Of a stretch of DNA of 64,000 nt, positions 5,153 to 52,339 are shown one piece after another; position 1 is the first letter of the stretch, and each line of letters opens with the position of its first letter. The DNA lies in IMG/VR virus record IMGVR_UViG_3300047476_001426, positions 32,001-96,000 of that record. The stretch is one strand, 5' to 3'. The notes beneath the pieces are model-generated. The model made no database searches. It saw only the letters and a list, made by a program, of their open reading frames with translations, and had not been told where the DNA came from. A program made the translations under genes and the position numbers. Source of the DNA: a virus.

Positions 5153-6711
5153 TGAAAATAATTGATTTAGGTGTTTGTATTGATAATAATGACCCAAAAG
5201 GATTAGGTAGAATTCGTGTGGTTGATTATGATGATTATATTGGTGGTAAATCTAATATAAAAGAAAACATACAACACTGGAGTAAAGATGACCCCTTTTT
5301 AGCTTCCCCATTTTTACCAAATAACATAAACTTTATTCCCGAACTTAAACAGGCGGTAAAAATAATCCGTTATGATACCGAAAAAACTACGGTAAACCAA
5401 GAATATATTGCGGGCCCGTTTTCAACTAGATATGATTTTAATTCTCAAGAATTTAACACACAAATATCTCAAACATCTTATGGGGTTTCGGTTGAAGATA
5501 AGGTTGATATAATAAAAAATGAACAAGGAAATTTACCCGAAAATTGTAAAGATGCCTTGTCAAAATATAAAGACTATTCTGTTGGAGGTAAATATGGGTC
5601 AGATGCTATTTTTACTCAGGACGGTTTAGTATTGAGGGGTGGTAAACTCGTTCAAAAAGATGTCACAAGTAATCAAAATAGAGAACTATTAACCAAAGGG
5701 TTCCCAATTGCTTCCGATAAAGTTGCTAAACTTCATTTGAAAAAATTTGGTCCTAAACAGTTTATTTCTGAAGAAACAAAAACAGAAGACATAACAGAAA
5801 ACTCAAATCTTAAATTTATCATTGAGTATGATATTAATGATTTAAGTAATCCTAATTATGTCAATTTTTATGTTTACCAAATAAAACCAAATGTTTCTAA
5901 AAAATATAACTCAAGTAATTTCACTGAATCAACACAAACCGTATCAGGGGAAACAATTTTTTTAACCGAATCGGGTAACACATATACTTTTAGAAGTGAC
6001 TTAAACTCAATTACAGATTATAGTGGTTCTACATTAACAAAGAAAGTTCAATTAATCTATCAAGAAATTAGAAATAAATTAAGTACAATTCAGAGTAATG
6101 GGTTCACAGGTATAGTATCGTTTAAAATTTTAACCGACCTAATAGTCACACAAAGTGATTCAAACGTGTATCCATTCTTCTTTAGACCCACAGATGAGTT
6201 TCAAAATCGAACTGTAACAACAACAGAAAGTGATAATAGATTAAAAATATTTAATAACGTTAAACTACCTGGCTCCACTTCAAAATCTAGCTTAGTCTAT
6301 AGTAAAGATAAGGTGAACCCCAACACAAGACGGGTTGAGAAATCTGTAAAAGTTTTAAAAAATGACAGTACATCGGTGGAACAAACTTTTGGGAATGTTA
6401 CCGCGGATAAAATTTTCCTTTTGTCAACAGATACAAATTTCACAGACAAAAAGATAGATTTCCCAACACTTAATTCATATGAATATGAACAATCTGATTA
6501 CATCGAAAAAATAGACCCAAATACCTATTCATTAGTTAGGGGGGAAATTTTATTGGATTTTATAGATGCCATGTACAATGTGCTCACAACACATGTACAC
6601 AATATCAACAAACCATATGTTAAATCGGATTACGACGCTCACACCAAATTGGATTTATTATACAACAAATTAAGAGATGAATTGATAAATAAATCAATTA
6701 AAATCAACTAA
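5152..6711 (+). CDS. Baseplate hub/central spike protein, gp5/VgrG-like
   Basis: N-terminal GVCIDNNDPKGLGRIRV (gp5 OB-fold signature) and C-terminal THVH (HxH metal-binding spike-tip motif). Confidence 0.6.
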   Translation: MKIIDLGVCIDNNDPKGLGRIRVVDYDDYIGGKSNIKENIQHWSKDDPFLASPFLPNNINFIPELKQAVKIIRYDTEKTTVNQEYIAGPFSTRYDFNSQEFNTQISQTSYGVSVEDKVDIIKNEQGNLPENCKDALSKYKDYSVGGKYGSDAIFTQDGLVLRGGKLVQKDVTSNQNRELLTKGFPIASDKVAKLHLKKFGPKQFISEETKTEDITENSNLKFIIEYDINDLSNPNYVNFYVYQIKPNVSKKYNSSNFTESTQTVSGETIFLTESGNTYTFRSDLNSITDYSGSTLTKKVQLIYQEIRNKLSTIQSNGFTGIVSFKILTDLIVTQSDSNVYPFFFRPTDEFQNRTVTTTESDNRLKIFNNVKLPGSTSKSSLVYSKDKVNPNTRRVEKSVKVLKNDSTSVEQTFGNVTADKIFLLSTDTNFTDKKIDFPTLNSYEYEQSDYIEKIDPNTYSLVRGEILLDFIDAMYNVLTTHVHNINKPYVKSDYDAHTKLDLLYNKLRDELINKSIKIN

Positions 6712-26594: not shown

Positions 26595-27008
26595 ATGGAA
26601 TATACAAAAGATTTGATACTTGTTCGTGGTATCCCGGGTTCTGGTAAATCGACTTTGGGTGAGGTAATATTATACACCCCAAATAATCCAATGAAACCTT
26701 TATCTGCGGATGATTACTTCATGGATAAAGAAGGTAATTACAACTTTGACCCCTCAAAAATAAGGGAGGCCCATAACGACTGCCAACAAAGATGTGCAAA
26801 CCTGATGATGAATTCAGTTGTCAGAGTTGTGGTTTCAAATACATTCACTCAAGAATGGGAAATGGAACCATATTTTGAAATGGGTCGTCGATATGGTTAT
26901 AGAGTCCATACAATCATTGTTGAAAATAGACACGGTGGTGAGAATGTTCATGGGGTCCCTGAAGACAAAATAGACATAATGAAAAACCGATTTGAAGTTA
27001 AGTTGTGA
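26595..27008 (+). CDS. P-loop polynucleotide-kinase-like protein (AAA_33)
   Basis: RGIPGSGKST Walker A, SADDYF, VVVSNTF...EMEPY, HGVPED. Confidence 0.8.
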   Translation: MEYTKDLILVRGIPGSGKSTLGEVILYTPNNPMKPLSADDYFMDKEGNYNFDPSKIREAHNDCQQRCANLMMNSVVRVVVSNTFTQEWEMEPYFEMGRRYGYRVHTIIVENRHGGENVHGVPEDKIDIMKNRFEVKL

Positions 27009-28075
27009 TAGATAGACTGAAAAAATATCATGAAGATGGGTTGTTAATGAGACAAACACACCCAACTAAAGATTTGTACATATGGAATTATACCCCAAGA
27101 GTACAGTATGAATCTTTATGGGATGATATTACTACGCAATGTCGTGGACTCATTACAACTCATTCAGGTGAAGTCATATCAAGACCATTCGGTAAGTTTT
27201 TTAACTATGAAGAGGTTATTGATAAGGATTTAATTCCATGGGACAGTGAGTATGCTCACGTTCAAACAAAAATGGATGGTTCTCTTGGTATATTGTTTTT
27301 TTATGATGGTGAATGGATTATGGCAACAAGAGGTTCATTTACATCTGAACAATCAATTCGAGGATTAGAGATTATAAAATCAAAATACGATTTGAGTAAG
27401 TTTTCTGAGAAATTCACTTATCTATGTGAAATAATTTATCCTGAGAATAGAATCGTGGTAAATTACGGTGAGGATAAAATCACATTCTTATCTATAACCA
27501 CTCCTGAATCAGAATTAAATTGGGCAACATCAATAGCAATATTCCATTCATCAGATATCAAAGAAGAGGACATTGTTGATAGTACTATGGTGACCTTCAA
27601 TAAAGAAACTTTTGAAACTTACAAAAATCTAAACATACCAAATGAAGAGGGATTTGTTATTAGGTTCTACCCTTCTAATTTTAGAATGAAAATAAAGTTT
27701 GAGGAGTATGTTCGTTTACATAGAATATTAACGAATGTGTCTAATAGAGATATATGGGAAGTGCTCCGTACCAATGGTGATATGAAGGAAATACTTGATG
27801 GTGTACCAGATGAATTTTACGATTGGGTTCGCAAAACTAAAGAAGATTTATTATTTCAATACAAACACTTGGAACGTGAATATCAATGGATTTTTAAAAT
27901 CATTAATAGAGCACCCAACATAGAAAATCGAGCGGTTTTCGCGGAATACGCAAAAAGATATAAACACCCTTCAATATTGTTTAATATGTTGGATAATAAG
28001 GATTACTCTCAACAAATTTGGAAGTTAATCTATCCTTCGTATTCGAAACCATTTAATACAAATGAAGATAATTAG
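27005..28075 (+). CDS. T4 Rnl1-like RNA ligase
   Basis: KMDGSLG adenylation motif, PFGKFFN, EGFV, FRMKIK. Confidence 0.88.
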   Translation: MIDRLKKYHEDGLLMRQTHPTKDLYIWNYTPRVQYESLWDDITTQCRGLITTHSGEVISRPFGKFFNYEEVIDKDLIPWDSEYAHVQTKMDGSLGILFFYDGEWIMATRGSFTSEQSIRGLEIIKSKYDLSKFSEKFTYLCEIIYPENRIVVNYGEDKITFLSITTPESELNWATSIAIFHSSDIKEEDIVDSTMVTFNKETFETYKNLNIPNEEGFVIRFYPSNFRMKIKFEEYVRLHRILTNVSNRDIWEVLRTNGDMKEILDGVPDEFYDWVRKTKEDLLFQYKHLEREYQWIFKIINRAPNIENRAVFAEYAKRYKHPSILFNMLDNKDYSQQIWKLIYPSYSKPFNTNEDN

Positions 28076-31219: not shown

Positions 31220-32976
31220 AAATTTATCTTACTACCAACTAAGAAAAATGATAGAATTGGAAATTCAGGGTTTGTACTCATGTTCGCTTTATAGTTAACA
31301 TTTAACTTAAAACGCTTTGAGATTTGATAGTCAAAACCACTACCAATAAAACCACTCACATATCTATCAGTTATTGATACATTGTCTTTAGATGAATAAA
31401 CTAAGGGTGTTGAAATAACGTATAATTCGGGTGACACAATTAATTTTTTACCAACTTTAAATGGTCTTGTGTAAAAAGCGGTGATAGATGGTGAATAATA
31501 ACCATTCTTTTCTTCCGATATAATCGTTGCTGCTGCACTTACGTTAAAACCCGTAATACCATATTTCCCACCATTTAAAATACCACTATAACCAATAAAC
31601 CCTAAATAATTACCATAAGTGTAAACTCCTGTCAGGTTTATGTTATGAATGAACTTCAACTTTTTTGTTTTATTGTAATGTATTTTAGTATATTTTGTTG
31701 ACACAGCAAACTGTTTGAAATTTAACCAAACCATACCAGTTACACCATAACTTGATAAACCTGTCATTGACGATTTACTTGTTCCAATGTTTACTATTGG
31801 GGTGAAAGTTCTATTCAAATTTTGAGCGGAGGTAACATCAGAAGAAACAATGATAGGGTTAGACCTCGCACTACCCCCACCACCTGATTTACCTTTTCCA
31901 CCACTGTTTGAACCACCAGAACCACCGGCATTATTATCATTGTGAGCATCGTTGTTCATTTGTGTTGTTGCACCAACTTCTTCACCTTGTTGTTGGGTGT
32001 TGTTTTGATTATTATTTCCATTAGAGGTACCCGTTCCACCACTATTTGAGTTTCCTGAACCTCCGCTATTTCCTGTGGTAGTAGAACCTCCAGAACCCCC
32101 GTTATTACCTGAAGTTCCCGAACTTCCCGAACCATTATTTCCTGTGTTTGTTCCGTTGGTTGTTCCCGAACCACCTGTTGTGCTCGAACCATTTGAACCC
32201 CCGTTATTTGATGGAGACCCATTTCCGTTATTAGAACTACCTGTTGACCCTGAACCACCGTTGTTCGAACCAGAATTGTTTGATGGGGTTGACCCATTAG
32301 AGTTACCCGAACCTACAGATGGTTGAGTCGTTGAATTTCCCCCCTGAGTTGAGTTACCTGTACTTGATGACGTTCCTCCATTTGTTGAATTTCCACTTCC
32401 TTGAGTCGAGTTACTTCCTCCATTTGTTGAATTAGTTCCTGAATTCGATTGGGATTGTCCTCCATTTTGAGTTGTACTATTATTCGTAGTATTTGATTGA
32501 GATGAATTACTTCCATTTCCTTGATTATTATTGTTTTTCTTCTTATCAGAATTTTTATTATCCTTACCACCAGCATCACTACTACCCGAAGAACCAGTTT
32601 CTAAACTAGATGATTGTGCTTGACTACTTGACAATATCGAACTCACAACTGATTGAACCGTACTACCAATAATTTGTGCGGTTATTTGGTTTTGAGTTAC
32701 TTGACCCTGTTGTTGTGAACATGGGTTTGTTTGTCTGTATGTGGTATAAACCTGATTTACCCAATTGGAAAATGTTCCATTGGATAAATCGTTCGCGTCA
32801 AAACTACCAACATTATTTAAAAAAATAATCATCGTTTTACCCCCCTGTATTGGTACACTAAATATTGTGACTTCTTTTGTACAAGGGTCTATAAAAGTAT
32901 ACGTTGATACTTGTGCTTTCGATACATTATATACGAAAGTAAGAAAAAATGTTAATATTAATGTCTTAATGTTCAT
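31216..32976 (-). CDS. Secreted protein with G/S/N/T-rich linker and putative C-terminal beta-barrel
   Basis: Signal peptide; about 250-aa low-complexity linker; alternating-hydrophobic strands ending FFLVGSKINL. Confidence 0.6.
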   Translation of the reverse strand: MNIKTLILTFFLTFVYNVSKAQVSTYTFIDPCTKEVTIFSVPIQGGKTMIIFLNNVGSFDANDLSNGTFSNWVNQVYTTYRQTNPCSQQQGQVTQNQITAQIIGSTVQSVVSSILSSSQAQSSSLETGSSGSSDAGGKDNKNSDKKKNNNNQGNGSNSSQSNTTNNSTTQNGGQSQSNSGTNSTNGGSNSTQGSGNSTNGGTSSSTGNSTQGGNSTTQPSVGSGNSNGSTPSNNSGSNNGGSGSTGSSNNGNGSPSNNGGSNGSSTTGGSGTTNGTNTGNNGSGSSGTSGNNGGSGGSTTTGNSGGSGNSNSGGTGTSNGNNNQNNTQQQGEEVGATTQMNNDAHNDNNAGGSGGSNSGGKGKSGGGGSARSNPIIVSSDVTSAQNLNRTFTPIVNIGTSKSSMTGLSSYGVTGMVWLNFKQFAVSTKYTKIHYNKTKKLKFIHNINLTGVYTYGNYLGFIGYSGILNGGKYGITGFNVSAAATIISEEKNGYYSPSITAFYTRPFKVGKKLIVSPELYVISTPLVYSSKDNVSITDRYVSGFIGSGFDYQISKRFKLNVNYKANMSTNPEFPILSFFLVGSKINL

Positions 32977-34671: not shown

Positions 34672-36585
34672 TTAAACTTTTACAAATTGTTTAGTTAATT
34701 GTTTATTATAATTATGCAAAACCAAGTAATAATTACCGGCTGCGGATGATGTCATATCGATTTGTTTATATGCAATTTTCTCTGATGAATTGGTTGTAAC
34801 AGAACCGATGTTTTTCACCAATTGACCTCTTACATCATAAATTGAACCGTTCATTTCCATGTTTGGATTTGGGAATCTAATTTCAATTTCAAACCATCCA
34901 CTTGTTGGGTTTGGTCTTATTGATGCTGTAATCTCATCAATTGATTGGTCTGTAGGTGGTGCCATTTTATACATGATAACCGCAACACTACTAACCAAAT
35001 CAATATTTAAATGGTCACCCTTCTCATCTGATGCATCCATTAATTGTCTCACATAAATGTTACTTACAATATCATTACCACCAATTGGTGAGAATTTAAG
35101 TTTAAATGGTGTTGATTGACCTATTAAACCATCTTTCATCTGATTGTTCATCCCACCGAATCTAATTGTACCATTAGAAGCATCGTGAGTAACATATTGT
35201 AACCATGGACCACCATTAAAATTTGATATAATCTCCTCAAACTTAACTTTAGTTTTATCGTATTTCATTTCAAACTGTAAACCATAATTGTTATCACCAT
35301 TTGTGTTAACATTGAATGGTACATATAATGGTTGACTTCCTGATGCTGAAGTATTAGGTATTTCAACATCTAATTTACCTTTAAACACCGCCTTAGCAAC
35401 TAATACCCCCGATGAGTTCCATACTCTTGATGAATACGTTCTGTCTACGTCACCTTGAATAAAGTACTTAATGTTTACTGTTTTATTAACTAAACCAACA
35501 CTATCCGTGATAAAATTGGTTGCGGTTAAATGGTTTGGCCAATCATTCCATTGAGTTGAACCTAAAACTAAAGAATCATAAACACTCGCGTGGAAAGTTC
35601 TAATCATTGTTGTGGTATCTATCTTTTTCATACCACTTACGTTCGCGTAAATTAGATATGGGTCACCACCATCCAATTTTCCGTTTTGGTTCATATCACC
35701 AATAAGGTATGCCAAACCATTTTTTAAGTATTGTTGTCCAAATCCTTGGTTAACGTCTGTAATTGTGTATTCATCATATGTCTTTACAGCGTCTGATATT
35801 GTAACCGCGTAATCTCTGAAGACTTCCATACTATCTGCTGGAAATCTAACCAATAATTTATATTTGGTATTTTTATCTACATTGTTTAATGAGTAGTTAC
35901 CAGCGGTGTCACATAAAGAAGATGAAACAAATGTGCCTGTATTATACTTTGTACATATTACTGTTGGTCTTCTACCGGCCAATTTCATTGTTGGAGGTAA
36001 TTCAACAACACCACTAATCACCAAGTTACCCAAAAGTTCAAGGTGCATATCTTGTACATTTAAGATTGCGATGTTATCACCAATTGTAGAACCGTCATAC
36101 TTAAACATTCTTGCCCAGTTAATTTCAACACTGTCAGCATCAAAGTTTGATTCTACGTCATTAATAATAAATTTGTTATGTATTAAAAATGTGTCTTGTG
36201 TTATTTGAGAACCACTTGAAAGTACCAAGAAATTTCTTGCCACAGTATAGTTGGTATCACTTGTGTATGAATACAAACCTGTACCTGAACTGTAACTTGA
36301 ATATTTGTAATTGTTAAAGAATTTTATCGAAAGTGCTGGAGTCATGGTACTCACAGTTGGGTCAACAGTAGTTGATACGTGAGTAAAAAGTTGTTTCCTA
36401 TATTGGAAATCAACTTGGAATGTTCTCACATCAACCGCGGATGCTGGTGTGTATTTAAACACAACATCTAAAGTATCACCTCTTTTGATAGTTTTATACG
36501 CAACGGGGTTACCTATTTCAGGTGTTTGTGAAAACGCCATTGTCGTGACAAATAAAGTAATTAGGGATAAAATTATTTTTTTCAT
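34672..36585 (-). CDS. T9SS-type cargo protein with cohesin-like and dockerin-like domains
   Basis: Signal peptide; cohesin-like FQVDFQY and LQFEMKYD...GTIRFGG; GDMNQNGKLDGGD; C-terminal IRPNPTSG..IYDVRGQLV..IDM...GNYYL..KQFVK (T9SS type A CTD). Confidence 0.8.
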   Translation of the reverse strand: MKKIILSLITLFVTTMAFSQTPEIGNPVAYKTIKRGDTLDVVFKYTPASAVDVRTFQVDFQYRKQLFTHVSTTVDPTVSTMTPALSIKFFNNYKYSSYSSGTGLYSYTSDTNYTVARNFLVLSSGSQITQDTFLIHNKFIINDVESNFDADSVEINWARMFKYDGSTIGDNIAILNVQDMHLELLGNLVISGVVELPPTMKLAGRRPTVICTKYNTGTFVSSSLCDTAGNYSLNNVDKNTKYKLLVRFPADSMEVFRDYAVTISDAVKTYDEYTITDVNQGFGQQYLKNGLAYLIGDMNQNGKLDGGDPYLIYANVSGMKKIDTTTMIRTFHASVYDSLVLGSTQWNDWPNHLTATNFITDSVGLVNKTVNIKYFIQGDVDRTYSSRVWNSSGVLVAKAVFKGKLDVEIPNTSASGSQPLYVPFNVNTNGDNNYGLQFEMKYDKTKVKFEEIISNFNGGPWLQYVTHDASNGTIRFGGMNNQMKDGLIGQSTPFKLKFSPIGGNDIVSNIYVRQLMDASDEKGDHLNIDLVSSVAVIMYKMAPPTDQSIDEITASIRPNPTSGWFEIEIRFPNPNMEMNGSIYDVRGQLVKNIGSVTTNSSEKIAYKQIDMTSSAAGNYYLVLHNYNKQLTKQFVKV

Positions 36586-37684: not shown

Positions 37685-37754
37685 GGGCCTGATGTCAACG
37701 GCAGACCGTCTGATTTGCAATCAGAACGATTGGGTTCGATTCCCACAGTGTCCA
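37685..37754 (+). tRNA. tRNA-Ala(TGC), irregular acceptor stem
   Basis: TCTGA-TTTGCAA-TCAGA anticodon arm, GGTTCGATTCC T arm, G3:U70-like pair; bulge in acceptor stem. Confidence 0.65.
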
Positions 37755-39291: not shown

Positions 39292-39460
39292 CTTTTTCAT
39301 TGAACATTTTGAAATATGGAATTTCATGTTTATATTTTAATTGTTCGTTTGTTCTTTGAAATAAAAATATGGATATAACTAGGGTCGAGCCAGATTTTGC
39401 CACGGTTATGTCAAGGGTTGGAAGGACCAGAGCTGGCCGTGACTACTCCAACCCACTATT

Positions 39461-40800: not shown

Positions 40801-40999
40801 GAAACTTCCTTACAGAAGGTGATAATGCTTCACTGAAAGGACTACTGACTTCCAAGTGGGTCGCAACCACAATCGGAAGGTACGACACGGCTCAGTAGAC
40901 TCTGTAACGGACCCTGCTCTATGGTGCACACATAACAGGTGATGGGGAACAAACCATCGGTAAAATCTAAACCCACGGTGAGCGTGGAAGGAATGTTTC
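40801..40999 (+). ncRNA. Unclassified multibranch structured RNA
   Basis: End-to-end stem GAAAC.TTCCTT/AAGGAA.GTTTC; internal TTACAGA/TCTGTAA, CTACTGA/TCAGTAG and several hairpins. Confidence 0.55.
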
Positions 41000-42263: not shown

Positions 42264-42335
42264 TCCTCGATAGCTCAGCGGTAGAGCAAACGGCTGTTAA
42301 CCGTTAGGTCCCAAGTTCGAATCTTGGTCGGGGAG
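42264..42335 (+). tRNA. tRNA-Asn(GTT)
   Basis: AACGG-CTGTTAA-CCGTT. Confidence 0.93.
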
Positions 42336-42411
42336 CAAAAAAATCGTTGATGGAAACATCGAAGGTGTACAATACTAGTAACACCGTAGGTTTGGCGATG
42401 TCCTACAATAG

Positions 42412-46385: not shown

Positions 46386-46457
46386 GGTCTCGTGGTGTAG
46401 CGGTAACATTACGGTCTCTAAAACCGATAGTCACGGGTTCAAATCCCGTCGGGACCA
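46386..46457 (+). tRNA. Amber suppressor tRNA (anticodon CTA)
   Basis: GGTCTCG/CGGGACC acceptor; CGGT-CTCTAAA-ACCG anticodon arm (CTA at 46418-46420); ACGGG-TTCAAAT-CCCGT. Confidence 0.88.
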
Positions 46458-46564
46458 CAACAAAAAAAAATATTTTTAAAAAAAATTACAAAAATACTTG
46501 TTTTTTAAAAAAAGTTTTGTATCTTTGTACCACAACAATAAATAATACATTTAATACGACATTT

Positions 46565-48637
46565 ATGACAACAAGAAATTTAGTTGCATTTCAAAAGAAT
46601 TTGGTGTGTTCACCAAACGACGGTCAAGATAACAGAATCGCTGTAGCAACCGTACAATCCCACCTAATGCAATGGGGTTACATGTTAGACGAAGACGCTT
46701 TCTTCGCATTAGCCAAATCAGATTTATCGTTTATTCAAAACTTCAATGATGAAGTGTTGAATCATTTGAAAAATGTAATGGGAGGTAAACGTAATTACCA
46801 ACCTTTATATAAAAACTTCCCACAAGAAGTGATGGTTATGTCCGACTTCGAATTGTACATGAATGCAATCATTCATTATTGGAGTAACGGTCAATGGGAA
46901 CCATCTACCCATACTTACGAAAAAGAAATCAAGTTTGAGAAAATCAAATACAACTTGATTAAGTATGGTACTTCGGAAAGATTCTCAAAAATCTTCACTG
47001 ACTTAGTGTCAATAAACACATCGTTAACTCCTCAAGACCTTGAGATTGTTAAATGGTTTGTTGAGAGCGGTGAAACATTAGTCTTCCCTGACACAATTCC
47101 ATTCAAAGAGAATTTGTGTACATTGGCGGCAATGGGAATCTCGGGATTACCAGTTAAGACTTCAACCGATGTGTTAAGAATCGCCGTTCATCTTTCAGGT
47201 GGTGATATTAGTTTACCAAAAGTTCCTCAAAAGGAAATTAGGGCAAGTGTATGGACCACCCAAAGGATTACGAATCCTGAAAGAGAAAAGTTTAAATTCA
47301 AGAAATTCTCTCGTAAAGAGAGAAAATACATCTTGGGTTTACTGGAGAACACAAACTGTGACCCACGTGAAATGGTTTTAAGAGACCAACGTTGGGTACG
47401 TTTAGGTGAAATATTACACCCGGGTGAATATAAAAACCAATTCCCTAAGTCTTTCGAGGCCTTCAACAAAATCCGAAACGAGAAAGTTAAATCTTGGTTC
47501 GCACTTGTTAACGAAGGTTTCAATAAAGGATTAGAGAATGGTTTGAGAGTTTTGTCTCAAAGACCTGGTGAGTTCTCTCGTAGAATGGATTGGTTGGTTC
47601 GTACATATCCAAAAGATATTGAACTGATTATGAAGTTCTTCGGAGAAGCGGTAAAAGGTACATCAAACAAAGTATTGTTTGAAGTTTACACTCACTTTGA
47701 AAATCGTACTGAACCTATGGATAATAGGTCTATTATGATAAAAGGGGCGAGAAAACGTACCACATTACCATCACTACCAGCAATCCCTAAAGAGATTGTG
47801 GAAACCATCCACTCTAAATTATTCGAAACACTTAGAGATAAGTTTTCGGTAATGGAATCTTTAGGTAACTGTTGGATTGATGAGGAATTGAAAAAAATTC
47901 CTTTACCAACCAACATGAGAAGTATGAACTTCTCAACTAAACCAACAATCAGAGGTCAAAGAGTTCCACTCGATAACCCTGATGCAAAAGTTATCAGACC
48001 GTTTGTTCATTGGATGGATAAACGTGGTAGCGAAGACTTGGATTTAAGTGTTACGTTTGTTGGTGAAAAGGTGTCAGAAGTACTATCTTTCAGTAACTTG
48101 AGAGTTGGTAAATCTTGTCACTCAGGGGATGTGAGACATAGACAGGGTCCTTGTGCCGAGTACATCGACATTGATATTCAAGATGCATTGAAAAGAGGAT
48201 TCAAATATGCAGTCATTGATGTGAGAAACTTCAATGGAGGTACTTTGAGTTCACTTGAAACGTCTTTTGGTATCATGGAACGAGAACACCCTGAATCAAA
48301 CAAAACATGGTTACCTGAAACAATTTCAAATTGTCAATCATTGGAATCAGCGTCGTCAAACACATTGATTTCTATTATTGACCTTGAAACTAAGGAGTAC
48401 ATCATGTTGGATATTGATTCATCAGGTTTCGTTACCGCAAGAGGTGACTTCAAACACACTCTTAAAGTGATTCAACAATACGCTGAATTACCAAAAGTAA
48501 GTGTTTATGACCTTATTCTTCTACACGTAGAAGGTCGAGGAAAACAAGTTACCCTTGATGAAAATGTCGACGTACACTTCAAGTACGAGGACTTCTGTTA
48601 CTCTTATGAGGAAACAGGAAAATTAATGGGTGTGTAA
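46565..48637 (+). CDS. Large alpha-helical protein with C-terminal TerD-like domain (Ro/TROVE-like candidate)
   Basis: ATG at 46565 after a TATCTTTG promoter (46520); EDLDLSV..HSGDV..AEYIDID TerD-type motifs; N-terminal helical region unassigned. Confidence 0.6.
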   Translation: MTTRNLVAFQKNLVCSPNDGQDNRIAVATVQSHLMQWGYMLDEDAFFALAKSDLSFIQNFNDEVLNHLKNVMGGKRNYQPLYKNFPQEVMVMSDFELYMNAIIHYWSNGQWEPSTHTYEKEIKFEKIKYNLIKYGTSERFSKIFTDLVSINTSLTPQDLEIVKWFVESGETLVFPDTIPFKENLCTLAAMGISGLPVKTSTDVLRIAVHLSGGDISLPKVPQKEIRASVWTTQRITNPEREKFKFKKFSRKERKYILGLLENTNCDPREMVLRDQRWVRLGEILHPGEYKNQFPKSFEAFNKIRNEKVKSWFALVNEGFNKGLENGLRVLSQRPGEFSRRMDWLVRTYPKDIELIMKFFGEAVKGTSNKVLFEVYTHFENRTEPMDNRSIMIKGARKRTTLPSLPAIPKEIVETIHSKLFETLRDKFSVMESLGNCWIDEELKKIPLPTNMRSMNFSTKPTIRGQRVPLDNPDAKVIRPFVHWMDKRGSEDLDLSVTFVGEKVSEVLSFSNLRVGKSCHSGDVRHRQGPCAEYIDIDIQDALKRGFKYAVIDVRNFNGGTLSSLETSFGIMEREHPESNKTWLPETISNCQSLESASSNTLISIIDLETKEYIMLDIDSSGFVTARGDFKHTLKVIQQYAELPKVSVYDLILLHVEGRGKQVTLDENVDVHFKYEDFCYSYEETGKLMGV

Positions 48638-48744
48638 TATCACCCACTAAGTTCTTTGAAATTTTGTAATAGGGGTTAATCAGGCGTAAATGGTTAACAT
48701 AAAAATGTAGTGAAGCTCGTTCCCTTCCTTACTAAAAAATATTA

Positions 48745-49257
48745 TATGTGGCTATGTGAGTCACTGAGAGGATAACGTTTACCTACTATAGAAATCACGG
48801 AGTGGTACTATTTTAGGTCTTAGAGAAGGTGAAAGTATCGGTGCAAACGTCTTACTTCTAACATACAACTATCAGATACAACGTTAGACACACAATCTCC
48901 ACATAACTTCTTAGACGGCTATGTATTGGGTTACTTCTATAAAATACAATTGGATGTAAAACCACCCGTACTCTTTCCGTCAACCATTTTAATGGCTACG
49001 TATTCAGTTACTTCTATCTTTGACTTCAACTCAAAACCGATTACTGATACATTTTCCATTTACTTTAGTTCTTTGATAAAAACATTGATGGCTATTGACC
49101 TTGTTACTTCTAGCTGGTTAACTCAGGTTCGATTCCTGAATTATCCTCGAAAGAGGGTGATTTATTACAAGTCATATTTCCATCTAACTTCTTTACCGGC
49201 TATGAGTGTAGTTACTTCTATCCTTTATTATACGATTTTACTCATTCAATTTCTGGT
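48745..49257 (+). ncRNA. Array of five Y-RNA-like RNAs sharing a GGCTAY...GTTACTTCT module
   Basis: Units 48745-48905, 48914-48981, 48991-49060, 49087-49184, 49195-49257, each closed by its own terminal stem. Confidence 0.75.
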
Positions 49258-49265
49258 TTTTATAT

Positions 49266-49389
49266 GAGGGGTGTAGCTCAGTTGGTAGAGCACGTATTAC
49301 TGGTTTAATTTCTGTTAATACGGCTATAAGCTAAGTTACTTCTTAGGCTGTTAACCTCGTGGTCGTAGGTTCGAATCCTACCACCCCTC
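49266..49389 (+). ncRNA. tRNA-Asn(GTT)-like RNA with the array module inserted in the anticodon stem
   Basis: AGGGGTG/CACCCCT acceptor, canonical D and T arms, CG[50 nt]AGG-CTGTTAA-CCTCG. Confidence 0.75.
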
Positions 49390-49450
49390 CTAATTGTTTC
49401 ATGTGAAACAATGATAAACAACAAATTAACAACATTTTAAAACAACAAAA

Positions 49451-49897
49451 ATGGCAAAAACAACAACCGACGAAAAAGTTAAACAATTGTTTGACCTCGT
49501 ACAAGAAAAAAAATTAGCAATCGAAAAGGCGGAAAGACCTTGTTGGAAAACAAGTTGTAATTTCGGATTCTCAGCAAATTCTGCACATGACAGGACATCA
49601 ATTCCATTAGTGACTGATGTTCGTAAACTCGTAGAAATGTACGCTTTCTTAATGGAAAGACGTGATAAATCTGAAAGTGCTGCGAAAGAGCTTGGAGTTG
49701 ATTACAATTTCACTTGGTTAGGATTTACAGTAGAGGAATGGAAAGACGATTTTCAAACTCGAGTGAATCAAATTTCAGTTCAAGAAAAACGTAAAGAACT
49801 CGCCGAATTAGAATCTCGTTTGAACGCAATTATTTCACCTGAATTAAGAGCACAAATGGAATTAGAGGCAATTGAAAAATTACTCAGTTCTAAGTAA
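49451..49897 (+). CDS. Coiled-coil hypothetical protein
   Basis: 148-aa ORF with an A-rich leader. Confidence 0.65.
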   Translation: MAKTTTDEKVKQLFDLVQEKKLAIEKAERPCWKTSCNFGFSANSAHDRTSIPLVTDVRKLVEMYAFLMERRDKSESAAKELGVDYNFTWLGFTVEEWKDDFQTRVNQISVQEKRKELAELESRLNAIISPELRAQMELEAIEKLLSSK

Positions 49898-50023: not shown

Positions 50024-50743
50024 ATGAGAATAGTTTGTATATCCGATACCCACTCTTTACATCCGTATATGTCACACGACATACCGAATGGTGATATATT
50101 AATACATTCTGGTGATTGTACAAATATTGGTGAAGAAAATGATGTTCGCGAGTTTATTACTTGGTTCCAAAATATTCGGGGATTTAGTCATAAAATTTTT
50201 ATTGCAGGAAATCATGATTTTGCATTTGAAAGAGAACCTTCATGGTTGAATCTTTATACCGACCCAAATATTTTAACAGAACACAATGTGACATATTTGG
50301 AAGATAGTGAATTAGAGATTGTGAGTTCTGAATTTTCAAGACCAATAAAAATATACGGTAGTCCGTGGCAACCCGAATTTTACGATTGGGCTTTTAACTT
50401 ACCGAGAAATGGTGAAGTTTTGGCATCAAGATGGGCGGATATACCTGATAATACGGATATTTTAATTACCCATGGACCTCCACACGGTATTAGAGACTTT
50501 ACTCCCACAAATTTACAAGTAGGATGTGAATTACTAAGAAGTAGAGTTTTTGAAATAAGACCGTTATTACATGTTTTTGGACATATACACGGTGCTTATG
50601 GTGGTGTTGAGGTAGATGGTATTACTTTTGCAAATGCATCAATTTGTACTGAAAGATATAAACCAACAAATAAACCATTAGTTTTTGATTTAACAGAAAA
50701 TAATGGTAATTTTACAATTACATACGTAGACGAAGAAAATTAA
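50024..50743 (+). CDS. Calcineurin-like metallophosphoesterase (MPPED-like)
   Basis: ISDTH, HSGD, AGNHD, THGPP, FGHIH motifs. Confidence 0.88.
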   Translation: MRIVCISDTHSLHPYMSHDIPNGDILIHSGDCTNIGEENDVREFITWFQNIRGFSHKIFIAGNHDFAFEREPSWLNLYTDPNILTEHNVTYLEDSELEIVSSEFSRPIKIYGSPWQPEFYDWAFNLPRNGEVLASRWADIPDNTDILITHGPPHGIRDFTPTNLQVGCELLRSRVFEIRPLLHVFGHIHGAYGGVEVDGITFANASICTERYKPTNKPLVFDLTENNGNFTITYVDEEN

Positions 50744-50770
50744 TTATCTTTGTTTCGTTCTTTGATTTAT

Positions 50771-51167
50771 GGGGGTGTATGGAATCGATTGGCATTGATA
50801 TCCTAAATGGGCACGTAGTCGGACTTCATCTACGACTTAAATCTACGGTGGAAAAATTCAAACGGCAACGTTTACAACAACATGGAAGTAGCAGGTCTTC
50901 TTGCAACTTCTAAAGTTGCTGCCTAATCGGCAGTAACTAACGGGTCGGTGGACACATAACCTTGGAACAGAAGTCCTTACAGTGTAATACCACTTAGAGT
51001 GTTAGGAGAATGGCCTGACTGTCTCTTTAAATTATAGTCAGGAACAGGTTTGTTGTTTTTCTGTGTATGAAATCAAATATTTGTTGGTTGTGAATAACCA
51101 AATAAACGTGTAGTCCATTTATGGTATGATGAGCAAGACGCGGGTTCGAAACCCGCCACCTCCACCA
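50771..51167 (+). ncRNA. ssrA: tmRNA
   Basis: GGGGGTG/CACCTCC-A-CCA acceptor with G3:U70, T arm GCGGG-TTCGAAA-CCCGC, tag ORF 50864-50926 GNVYNNMEVAGLLATSKVAA*. Confidence 0.92.
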
Positions 51168-51170
51168 AAT

Positions 51171-51200
51171 AAGAAGGGGACCCTAAAGGTCCCCTTTTTT
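51171..51200. terminator. Bidirectional terminator between ssrA and the DUF2589-like genes
   Basis: AAGGGGACC-CTAAA-GGTCCCCTT with a T-run. Confidence 0.85.
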
Positions 51201-51687
51201 ATTGTTTTGTTGGATTAATATTTGGTTCAGACATATTTTGAATGTAACCATCTATGATTCTACTGACCGCTTCAGGTTTGTCATCTGATTTAAATTTTAC
51301 TTTAATCTTAGCCATTCCATAGTCGTCAATATTTTTACCTGAGTCAACTTTTATTCCTCTGATATTGTGTTTGTAATCTTTTTTCTTAAAAATCCCTAAA
51401 AGTGATTTTTTTAAATTTGATACATCACATGAATCATCGTCAAAAAGAAGTCTGGCGTCAAATTCGACATCCAATTCGTTTAACCCAATTGAAGAATGGT
51501 CCGCTAAAATATAATAAGGAACCACTATTTCTTTTTCCCCAACTTTAAAAGTTGTTGTTATTGGTGTACCATCTTCATTGAAATAATTTTTTAAATTATC
51601 AATGTGTTGTCTTTCACTAATACTTTGGGCAACCATAGCCGCCTCTAAAAGACCACCAATAAGTTCTTCAATATTTAATTTTGACAT
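51199..51687 (-). CDS. DUF2589-like protein
   Basis: LIGGLLEAAMVAQ..., VPYYILADHSSIGLNELDVEF pattern. Confidence 0.55.
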   Translation of the reverse strand: MSKLNIEELIGGLLEAAMVAQSISERQHIDNLKNYFNEDGTPITTTFKVGEKEIVVPYYILADHSSIGLNELDVEFDARLLFDDDSCDVSNLKKSLLGIFKKKDYKHNIRGIKVDSGKNIDDYGMAKIKVKFKSDDKPEAVSRIIDGYIQNMSEPNINPTKQ

Positions 51688-51742
51688 TATTAAAAATTAT
51701 GTTAATTAAATATAACACAATTTTTTGACAAAATCAAATACC

Positions 51743-52339
51743 TTATTTACTTGGGTCTGCCGTTAAAGGAATCAAAGATGGTTCTAACATCTGAGTAAGA
51801 TAATCAGACAACTTTAACATACCCTCAGTTGGTGGTAATTGTTCTGCGTGAACTTTAACTTCATATTTAGCTGAGTTATCTGTACTTCTTGTGTTTTCCT
51901 TATGAGTGGCAACTTTACCTGCAACAGTTGCTGAGAATTTCATACCCCACCAACTAGCAGATGCTGTCGCAGAATATGATGATTCACTATCAGAACTCTC
52001 TTGAGATGTTTCTGAAGTTTTAACTTCCATTGTAAATCCAATGTCGGCAGAAGTGATTGCTAAAGCCGGAAGTGGAACCAATGGTAACATTGGAACTTTA
52101 TTGTATAATTTTTGAATTTCTTGTTGACCTGTATCACCGTTTGTTACAACTCTATTCATTTCAACATCCAATGAACGAGCGGTAGTGTTACCGTCCTTAT
52201 CTTTTTCAAATGCAACTTCAGAGATGTATCTCCAAGTAACTTCATTTAATTTCGCTTGTCCTTTAGCCATACCGACAATTGGGGACACGATTAAGTCTTC
52301 AATAGGAAGACCCACAAATTGGTCTGCAATTCCTGCCAT
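51743..52339 (-). CDS. DUF2589-like protein
   Basis: FVGLPIEDLIVSPIVGMAKGQAKL, VPMLPLVPLPALAITSADIGF pattern. Confidence 0.65.
   Translation of the reverse strand: MAGIADQFVGLPIEDLIVSPIVGMAKGQAKLNEVTWRYISEVAFEKDKDGNTTARSLDVEMNRVVTNGDTGQQEIQKLYNKVPMLPLVPLPALAITSADIGFTMEVKTSETSQESSDSESSYSATASASWWGMKFSATVAGKVATHKENTRSTDNSAKYEVKVHAEQLPPTEGMLKLSDYLTQMLEPSLIPLTADPSK

Follow-up and report, generated by a model that had tools for sequence, protein, structure and literature searches.

Handle RNAs encoded beside a helical-repeat/TerD-domain protein gene in phages and bacteria: a candidate RNA–protein pair resembling Ro60 and Y RNA

The closest described counterparts of the locus analysed here are those of Ro60 (Rsr) and the Y RNAs YrlA and YrlB, in which one or more genes for small structured RNAs lie beside, and on the same strand as, the gene for a large helical-repeat protein. 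The terminal stem of bacterial Y RNAs carries a Ro-binding motif, GNCGAAN0-1G or GGUCCGA (PMC4201824), and YrlA is a Y RNA that displays tRNA mimicry (Chen et al. 2014, PMC4201824). A similar arrangement is present in a 64,000 nt stretch of DNA of a freshwater phage (the window; positions 32,001–96,000 of the IMG/VR virus record IMGVR_UViG_3300047476_001426, which is 136 kb long and about 41% complete), where five units of one RNA family (nt 48745–49258) follow the gene of a 690-residue protein (nt 46565–48637, + strand). Like Y RNAs, the RNAs of these units, here termed handle RNAs, have a terminal stem, a conserved module of the protein-binding type and a variable second domain. We put at roughly 60% the probability that handle RNAs and the 690-residue protein form an undescribed RNA–protein particle that works like Ro60/Y RNA without being a demonstrable member of that family; it is classed in this way because the defining features of Ro60 and Y RNA that can be tested in sequence were not found.

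All five units lie on the + strand and share one plan. A closing stem (P1) ending in GG:CC leads into a CUAU/nUUU internal loop and a second helix (P2) of 4+4 bp with a one-base bulge, after which come an unpaired UUACUUCUA and a variable insert. Units 2, 3 and 5 are of the canonical short form: unit 2 (nt 48913–48982) has P1 GACGG/CCGTC and P2 GTATTGGGT/ACCCGTAC, unit 3 (nt 48990–49061) has P1 AATGG/CCATT, and unit 5 (nt 49194–49258) has P1 ACCGG/CTGGT, with a G·U pair. In unit 4 (nt 49086–49185) the loop of the handle core holds a T-arm-like hairpin (TCAGG-TTCGATT-CCTGA, nt 49123–49139) and a second hairpin; both are retained in the centroid fold together with P1 and P2, and the GGTTCGAATCC hairpins are kept in orthologues of this unit at two other loci (L030 and L080). 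Unit 1 (nt 48745–48905) is a long variant, with P1 TATGTGG/CCACATA and a branched insert of about 90 nt at the P2 bulge. Minimum-free-energy folds of single units recovered P1 and the bulged P2, with z values of -2.5 to -2.9. An earlier note on this DNA had described the five stems, a CTAT or CTAC strand opposite a pyrimidine-rich loop, a bulged 9-versus-8 helix and the T-arm hairpin, and each was found where it had been placed. The count of five given there holds for the units, but copies of the constant module number six, the last lying within a tRNA-Asn(GUU) gene (nt 49267–49390), and unit 1, which had been listed with the others, shares their core but is set apart by its insert. Five matches to the motif GGCTAY-N8-TTACTTCT lie in the window (nt 48917, 48994, 49090, 49198 and 49322), with none expected by chance; the last of them falls within the tRNA-like gene, beyond the range that the earlier note had covered.

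A pattern scan found arrays with 2–6 copies of the motif on many viral contigs. When 40 short units from different phage contigs were aligned with MAFFT and folded unguided with RNAalifold, P1 was predicted as 5 bp ending in an invariant GG:CC and P2 as 4 bp, a bulge and a further 4 bp, with compensatory changes in 11 of the 13 predicted pairs. Paired cells amounted to 87%, against 63% in shuffled alignments (none of 500 shuffles reached 87%), and pairing collapsed when the partner was slid by 1–3 columns. The first procedure for picking units had used pairing in setting their 3' ends, so that selection bias was possible; a second, motif-based test was hence applied to loci picked by protein (see below), in which 3' ends were set solely by the motif [TA]T[TAC]CC. 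In this control P1 retained 3.07 of 4 pairs, compared with 1.61 for shuffled partners, and P2 retained 5.66 of 8, compared with 3.66. The earlier observation, made within this one genome, that pairing is kept while sequence differs thus extends across many phages and bacteria. The consensus of the family reads N-P1-GGCUAU-P2a-UU(A/C)CUUCUA-variable-P2b-nUUUCC-P1', with a median length of 65–69 nt. Covariation also backs the insert helices of unit 1, for which RNAalifold predicted 34 pairs from twelve orthologues, 14 of them with compensatory changes.

The covariance model that had been suggested as a check was built (R1) and found four full units in the window, with E values from 4e-15 to 4e-9: unit 2 (72.2 bits, E 4e-15), unit 3 (63.8 bits, E 4.6e-13), unit 5 (49.8 bits, E 1.1e-9) and unit 4 (47.6 bits, E 3.9e-9). 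Unit 1 gave a partial match (nt 48849–48889) comprising the inner part of P2 and UUACUUCUA, and a weak match fell in the tRNA-like gene. The units match no known Rfam family. The Rfam 15 scan of the window at gathering scores placed no family at the array, only noise was seen there at E ≤ 10 over nt 48600–49450 (snoRNA- and MALAT1-like, E 0.8–9), with no match to the Y RNA families, and a scan of twelve bacterial loci gave no match at their units. The module also differs from the known Ro60 site, as the earlier note had stated: the handle motif GGCUAU...UUACUUCUA and the GGCUAU/nUUUCC stems are unrelated to GNCGAAN0-1G or GGUCCGA. No published account of the motif, or of a link between TerD and Ro60 or a non-coding RNA, was found in the full-text literature, although a prior description may still exist.

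Conserved unpaired nucleotides at a helix junction, in units that stand in arrays, could also be expected if the units were self-cleaving ribozymes that cut a multi-unit transcript, and small ribozymes do occur in the tRNA regions of phages. This explanation is highly improbable, as no Rfam ribozyme family was matched even at E ≤ 10, units stand singly in some bacterial leaders, and the tight link to a large protein that does not look like an enzyme would be left unexplained.

This link was assessed at loci that were picked by the protein alone, with a 16-sequence alignment of closer homologues. Among loci selected by the RNA pattern, the 690-residue protein was the only protein of the window with homologues in most (23 of 29), down to 27% identity. 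Conversely, units were present in 67 of 79 viral loci picked by protein at E ≤ 0.1 (54 at E ≤ 1e-3) and in 63 of 80 bacterial loci at E ≤ 1, so that they adjoin the homologous gene in 130 of the 159. The linkage to homologues of nt 46565–48637 that had been put forward for testing is therefore borne out, and the strand is always that of the gene: all 185 viral and all 100 bacterial R1 matches abut the gene on its own strand, directly before or after it, and the 5' motif was counted 263 times on the + strand of these loci, with not one copy on the - strand. Same-strand adjacency to a partner gene is also a feature of Y RNA genes, though the partner here is not Ro60. The genome search that had likewise been proposed found the family in phages and in bacteria, as is the case for Ro60/Y RNA, and the gene beside the RNAs spans phages and at least eight bacterial phyla. 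The 80 bacterial loci come from Bacillota, Planctomycetota, Armatimonadota, Acidobacteriota, Verrucomicrobiota, Obscuribacterales and others; loci with units include those of Bacillus, Paenibacillus, Priestia, Gemmata, Armatimonadota, Obscuribacterales and Acidobacteriota. No conserved neighbour other than RNA and protein was found across the 159 loci, which indicates that the two form a self-contained pair. In a coarse clustering of the neighbouring genes, RNA-repair genes did not recur next to the pair either.

The position of the units relative to the gene varies, and the linkage is kept in both arrangements. The array lies downstream of the gene in the clade of the window, and upstream in distant phages and in bacteria (27–50% protein identity), where mostly 1–3 units stand just before the gene. 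The units could be a cis-acting operator or leader, i.e. binding sites of the protein on its own mRNA through which its synthesis or stability is subject to feedback. Bacterial units that directly precede the start codon on the same strand, the strict strand bias, which fits co-transcription, and the lack of a terminator between units and gene in one bacterial locus (L259) agree with this proposal. It is nevertheless unlikely, because in the window's clade the array comes after the stop codon and has promoter-like motifs of its own within it, every unit has a P1 stem of its own to close it, one copy lies inside a tRNA gene, and up to six or seven units, with payloads that extend to a T-arm, a branched domain or whole tRNAs, exceed the needs of an operator.

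Tandem riboswitch-like aptamers, which would control the TerD-domain gene in response to a small ligand or ion (a nucleoside-like signal, or the Ca2+ of Ter systems), would show the same tandem upstream position in bacteria, and a conserved internal loop with unpaired conserved nucleotides in a covarying scaffold; TerD domains have, moreover, been discussed as binders of nucleotide derivatives (PMC7159879). In neither of the two leaders examined was an expression platform or terminator seen (L259, by terminator scan; L271, by eye, with no overlap with the Shine-Dalgarno sequence), many phages carry the arrays downstream of the gene, and the loops are highly variable and may have whole tRNAs inserted. 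The conserved residues, mostly a pyrimidine run, would also seem not to form a compact pocket. Such aptamers are thus quite improbable.

Some details of individual bacterial loci may be added. The stretch of Bacillus toyonensis CP170571 (L261) has seven abutting genes with no intergenic bases and no units, and the record looks odd; a near-identical gene, that of L259, is preceded by a 670-nt region with three units. A promoter picked by eye in L259, TTGCAT-17-TATACT, failed a consensus scan and was rejected. In L203 the handle units are separated from the partner gene by an open reading frame (ORF; nt 5402–6260), and in nine bacterial loci by a small TPR-like one (e.g. L266, Obscuribacterales, nt 2206–2730).

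The partner protein consists of helical repeats (residues 1–430), a TerD-like β-sandwich (about residues 458–640) and C-terminal helices. An AlphaFold2 model built with 100 homologues has a mean predicted local distance difference test score (pLDDT) of 95.4, and the helical domain folded alone reaches 95.5. The model matches four TerD structures with Z scores of 12.8–15.6, among them 3ibz (15.6) and 2kxt (12.8) over residues 472–634, which agrees with the earlier description of the protein as helical plus TerD. The β-sandwich superposes on that of TerD (PF02342; 3ibz, 2kxt, 2qz7) with a root-mean-square deviation (rmsd) of about 2.5 Å over some 150 residues; the SGD motif and acidic residues are likewise invariant (S520, G521, D522, D493, E532 and D606 in the partner family). 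Classical TerD, however, is a stand-alone domain of about 190 residues found in tellurite-resistance and stress operons, with no known RNA partner, whereas here it caps a helical domain of 430 residues, with many Arg and Lys positions that vary little or not at all, and RNA genes accompany the gene.

Pfam gave no match to the window protein even at E ≤ 10, and its TerD model was reached by one of 48 family members; a PDB sequence search with the protein returned nothing. The best sequence-family match is NCBIfam NF041916 (MXAN_6230/SCO0854 family RING domain-containing protein), with E 2.4e-69 and 234 bits against a curated cut-off of 600. Its best-matched stretch places residues 308–666 on profile positions 386–761 of 842, so that a RING part is not evident; the partner protein is related to the NF041916 family yet no equivalog of it. 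Neighbours in the ESM Atlas bear the names 'TerD family' and 'Prokaryotic RING finger family 4', and the partner family numbers 2417 representative clusters at E ≤ 0.001.

The order of a helical domain followed by a metal-binding domain is also that of Ro60, although the C-terminal domain of Ro60 (TROVE plus vWA) is a vWA domain with a metal-ion-dependent adhesion site and not a TerD β-sandwich. When the helical domain was compared with 48,161 chains, the Ro60 of Thermus phage phiLo ranked first (9l5y_B; Z 7.0, 224 residues, rmsd 4.9), Deinococcus radiodurans Rsr third (2nvo; Z 6.6, 240 residues) and Xenopus Ro sixteenth (1yvp; Z 5.5, 250 residues). These alignments of 224–250 residues are 2–3 times longer than the HEAT pieces of about 95 residues among the other low-rmsd matches. 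A canonical TROVE protein also occurs in three of five carrier genomes tested, and none was found in the present phage record, itself about 41% complete.

It is in their variable part that the handle RNAs differ most from one another. Inserts in the window range from plain loops to a T-arm and the branched domain of unit 1. Elsewhere, the handle loop of L101 holds a circularly permuted tRNA whose acceptor end is closed, as judged by eye (L076 is possibly a second case), and in a contig of a Puia sp. metagenome-assembled genome (MAG; L203, nt 6547–6672) a handle unit carries a complete tRNA-Met(CAT), including CCA, in its loop. The converse arrangement is seen in the next gene of the same contig (nt 6680–6801), which is tRNA-like with a handle in the anticodon loop; here the last part of the loop is the conserved UUCUAAA, which could be taken for a CUA anticodon.

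In the window, the tRNA-Asn(GUU)-like gene that ends the array (nt 49267–49390, + strand) has a 50-nt insert (nt 49295–49344) in the 5' strand of the anticodon stem, between nucleotides 28 and 29. In the insert a hairpin stands where P1 would be, and GGCUAU-N8-UUACUUCU (in DNA, GGCTAT-N8-TTACTTCT) comes after it. As encoded, the gene is not called by ARAGORN and lies below the Rfam gathering score (best 16.7 bits, 3' part only), while in-silico deletion of the insert leaves a canonical tRNA-Asn(GUU) whose anticodon stem is paired throughout. An uninterrupted tRNA-Asn(GUU) is also present in the window (nt 42264–42336). The interrupted arrangement recurs in L080, L011, L030, L090 and L132, and is the last array element in relatives; a version that resembles tRNA-Tyr(GUA) by eye occurs in L082, and in L082 and L203 other tRNA-like genes carry the module where their anticodon loop begins. 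In a brute-force deletion scan, Asn(GUU) was dominant in the window, L011, L030, L090 and L132, and L102, L089 and L076 were ambiguous, bearing in mind that ARAGORN is permissive. The handle in a tRNA and the tRNA in a handle are circular permutations of one design.

In several respects these payloads recall Y RNAs. A tRNA-like domain is present at the locus, as in Y RNAs (the T-arm of unit 4 and the tRNA-Asn body of the sixth copy, with L101 and L203 as further cases), and some handle RNAs mimic tRNA with a closed acceptor end in the manner of YrlA (L101 and unit 4). Compared with Ro60/Y loci, handle arrays are longer and their payloads include complete tRNAs. A tRNA body joined to a large foreign module is also found in transfer-messenger RNA (tmRNA) and other tRNA-derived chimeras, and the window encodes both a tmRNA and the handle-bearing tRNA, behind the same promoter-like motif; unlike tmRNA, the interrupted tRNA has no tag reading frame, no link to SmpB and its module in the anticodon stem or loop, and a tRNA part is absent from most units.

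Four freshwater or river metatranscriptome studies contain contigs that overlap parts of the array, covering nt 48457–48961 (the 3' end of the gene and units 1 and 2), 48760–49018, 48964–49166 and 49280–49443 (the insert-bearing tRNA-like gene). As contigs, these show presence alone, and ends, strand and expression level cannot be read from them. Joints near nt 49292–49361 in the RNA-library contigs carry foreign anticodon arms, which indicates ordinary tRNAs of other organisms, and the joints 49292>49343 and 49296>49344 are each seen in one contig with a side of 20–23 nt; with short sides of 19–24 nt overall, the joints were set aside as evidence of splicing, counting neither for nor against it.

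A perfect tRNA-Asn(GUU) is regained when exactly 50 nt are taken out, with similar cases in relatives, and this might suggest a mobile or spliced insertion of tRNA genes, with the free units as decayed or derived tRNA genes or as scaffolds of tRNA maturation. The T-arms, permuted tRNAs and whole tRNA-Met with CCA held by units, and the position of the array beside tRNA clusters, would fit such an element. Yet a tRNA part is missing from most units and from nearly all of those in bacteria, the insertion point varies (nucleotides 28/29 in the window, the first part of the anticodon loop in L082 and L203), the RNA-library joints look like tRNAs of other organisms, and the link to the protein is left unexplained. 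We also know of no bacterial or phage machinery for introns this short, and an intron-like origin is very doubtful.

The sequence GTTCTTTGAA, which lies ahead of the array (nt 48651–48660, + strand) and had been called boxA-like, recurs ahead of unit 4 as GTTCTTTGAT (nt 49068–49077, + strand). In the form GTTCTTTGAW the element is present four times in the window, always on the + strand, where 0.89 copies would be expected; its two further sites lie in the tRNA cluster (nt 39351–39360) and 5 nt before the tmRNA gene (nt 50757–50766), and it also precedes units by 8–20 nt in L030, L080, L082 and L059. Since it is found before tmRNA, within the tRNA cluster and before the units of relatives, it behaves like a promoter element, and the boxA designation is probably wrong: a promoter element of phage or host type for small-RNA genes is the probable and simpler reading of this distribution.

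The surroundings of the array are rich in RNA genes. Between 37.7 and 46.5 kb the window has 26 tRNA genes by ARAGORN and 27 matches by Rfam; one weak tRNA match by Rfam, at nt 37685–37754 (31.8 bits), has no ARAGORN call. An amber-suppressor tRNA with anticodon CUA (labelled Pyl by ARAGORN; nt 46386–46458) lies directly upstream of the partner gene, and the window ORFs that were looked at are open under table 11. A freshwater-1 RNA (RF02979; nt 40903–40965) with 72.5 bits, barely above the gathering score, lies within the tRNA cluster, and Rfam places the tmRNA at nt 50771–51167. An Rnl1-type RNA ligase (PF09511, E 1.6e-16) is encoded at nt 27005–28075, about 20 kb from the array; it is consistent with an RNA-repair theme, though not adjacent. 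The array is followed by genes for a 148-residue protein without assigned function (phrog_2574; nt 49451–49897) and a metallophosphoesterase (nt 50024–50743), which recur after the array in 28 and 23 viral loci, respectively, and in at most one bacterial locus, and may be clade-specific accessories. Two adjoining DUF2589 paralogues (nt 51199–52339) are on the - strand. A 637-residue protein (nt 34672–36585) has a C-terminal type-9-secretion sorting domain (PF18962), a sign that the host may belong to the Bacteroidota; among cellular proteins, the closest homologue of the partner lies on a Puia sp. MAG contig.

Under the interpretation that we prefer, the units would be genes for small non-coding RNAs that are dedicated partners of the neighbouring helical-repeat/TerD protein. 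The constant module (P1 with GG:CC, the CUAU/nUUU loop, the bulged P2 and the unpaired UUACUUCUA) would be a putative protein-binding handle, and the variable loop or insert the payload that the particle shows, whether a plain loop, a T-arm, a branched domain, or a whole, permuted or handle-interrupted tRNA. In this way a single protein could take up one RNA or another, several of them being tRNA mimics or having a tRNA within, following the logic of Ro60 with YrlA-type Y RNAs. The sequences establish the RNA fold, its covariation and, in phages and bacterial phyla alike, an almost obligate linkage to the gene on one strand; we infer that the protein binds the handle, that the RNAs have discrete ends and that the pair has a cellular role. 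A likely field of action in the phage, which carries 26 or more tRNAs, a tmRNA and an Rnl1-type RNA ligase, is the repair or quality control of tRNA or other RNA in the course of infection.

A more specific version of this role, which we put forward as tentative and rather unlikely in this form, is a device for tRNA-directed surveillance or counter-defence. A ring-like protein would hold baits on the handle that copy tRNAs or are complete tRNAs, and could capture host anticodon nucleases or else hand damaged tRNAs on for repair, for instance by the Rnl1-type ligase; one bait may be the tRNA-Asn with a handle in its anticodon stem. In bacteria, the pair would serve RNA quality control at times of stress.

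Several observations weigh against a particle of the Ro60/Y kind. Most bacterial units lie in the 5' region of the gene with, as in L259, no terminator between, which also fits a cis-acting operator. No unit match was obtained in 12 of 79 viral and 17 of 80 bacterial loci, mostly those with the most distant proteins or on cut contigs. The Ro60 Z scores do not exceed 7.0, and the tool itself cautions that chance alone can give helical repeats such values; Foldseek returned nothing significant for the helical domain alone. TROVE (PF05731) was detected by Pfam at E ≤ 1 in none of 48 family members, and hhalign, comparing a profile of 100 family sequences with an alignment of 33 TROVE sequences, gave a probability of 0.6%. 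With such modest Z scores, a silent Foldseek search and negative TROVE profiles, the protein has a Ro60-like plan and is not a demonstrable TROVE homologue. The metatranscriptome contigs could derive from DNA carry-over, and expression of the RNAs is, like binding and discrete ends, a prediction. The operator, riboswitch, tRNA-insert and ribozyme explanations nevertheless each cover some of the facts and fail on the downstream arrays, the payloads or the link to the protein.

An RNA with no Rfam family and a protein with no Pfam family, despite about 2,400 representative clusters, represent a gap in the databases, and the annotation of phages would gain a class of small-RNA genes together with an explanation for 'missing' tRNA genes that are interrupted by a handle. 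Cultivable carriers exist (Bacillus, Paenibacillus and Priestia), and the small size of the handle allows it to be tested directly by mutation. If the pair does form a particle, it would be a widespread and unstudied counterpart of Ro60/Y RNA, would provide the first RNA-linked role of a TerD domain, and would present tRNA-like payloads in a modular manner. Were the surveillance or counter-defence proposal also to hold, handle RNAs and their partner would constitute a second, independent lineage of Ro/Y-type ribonucleoproteins.

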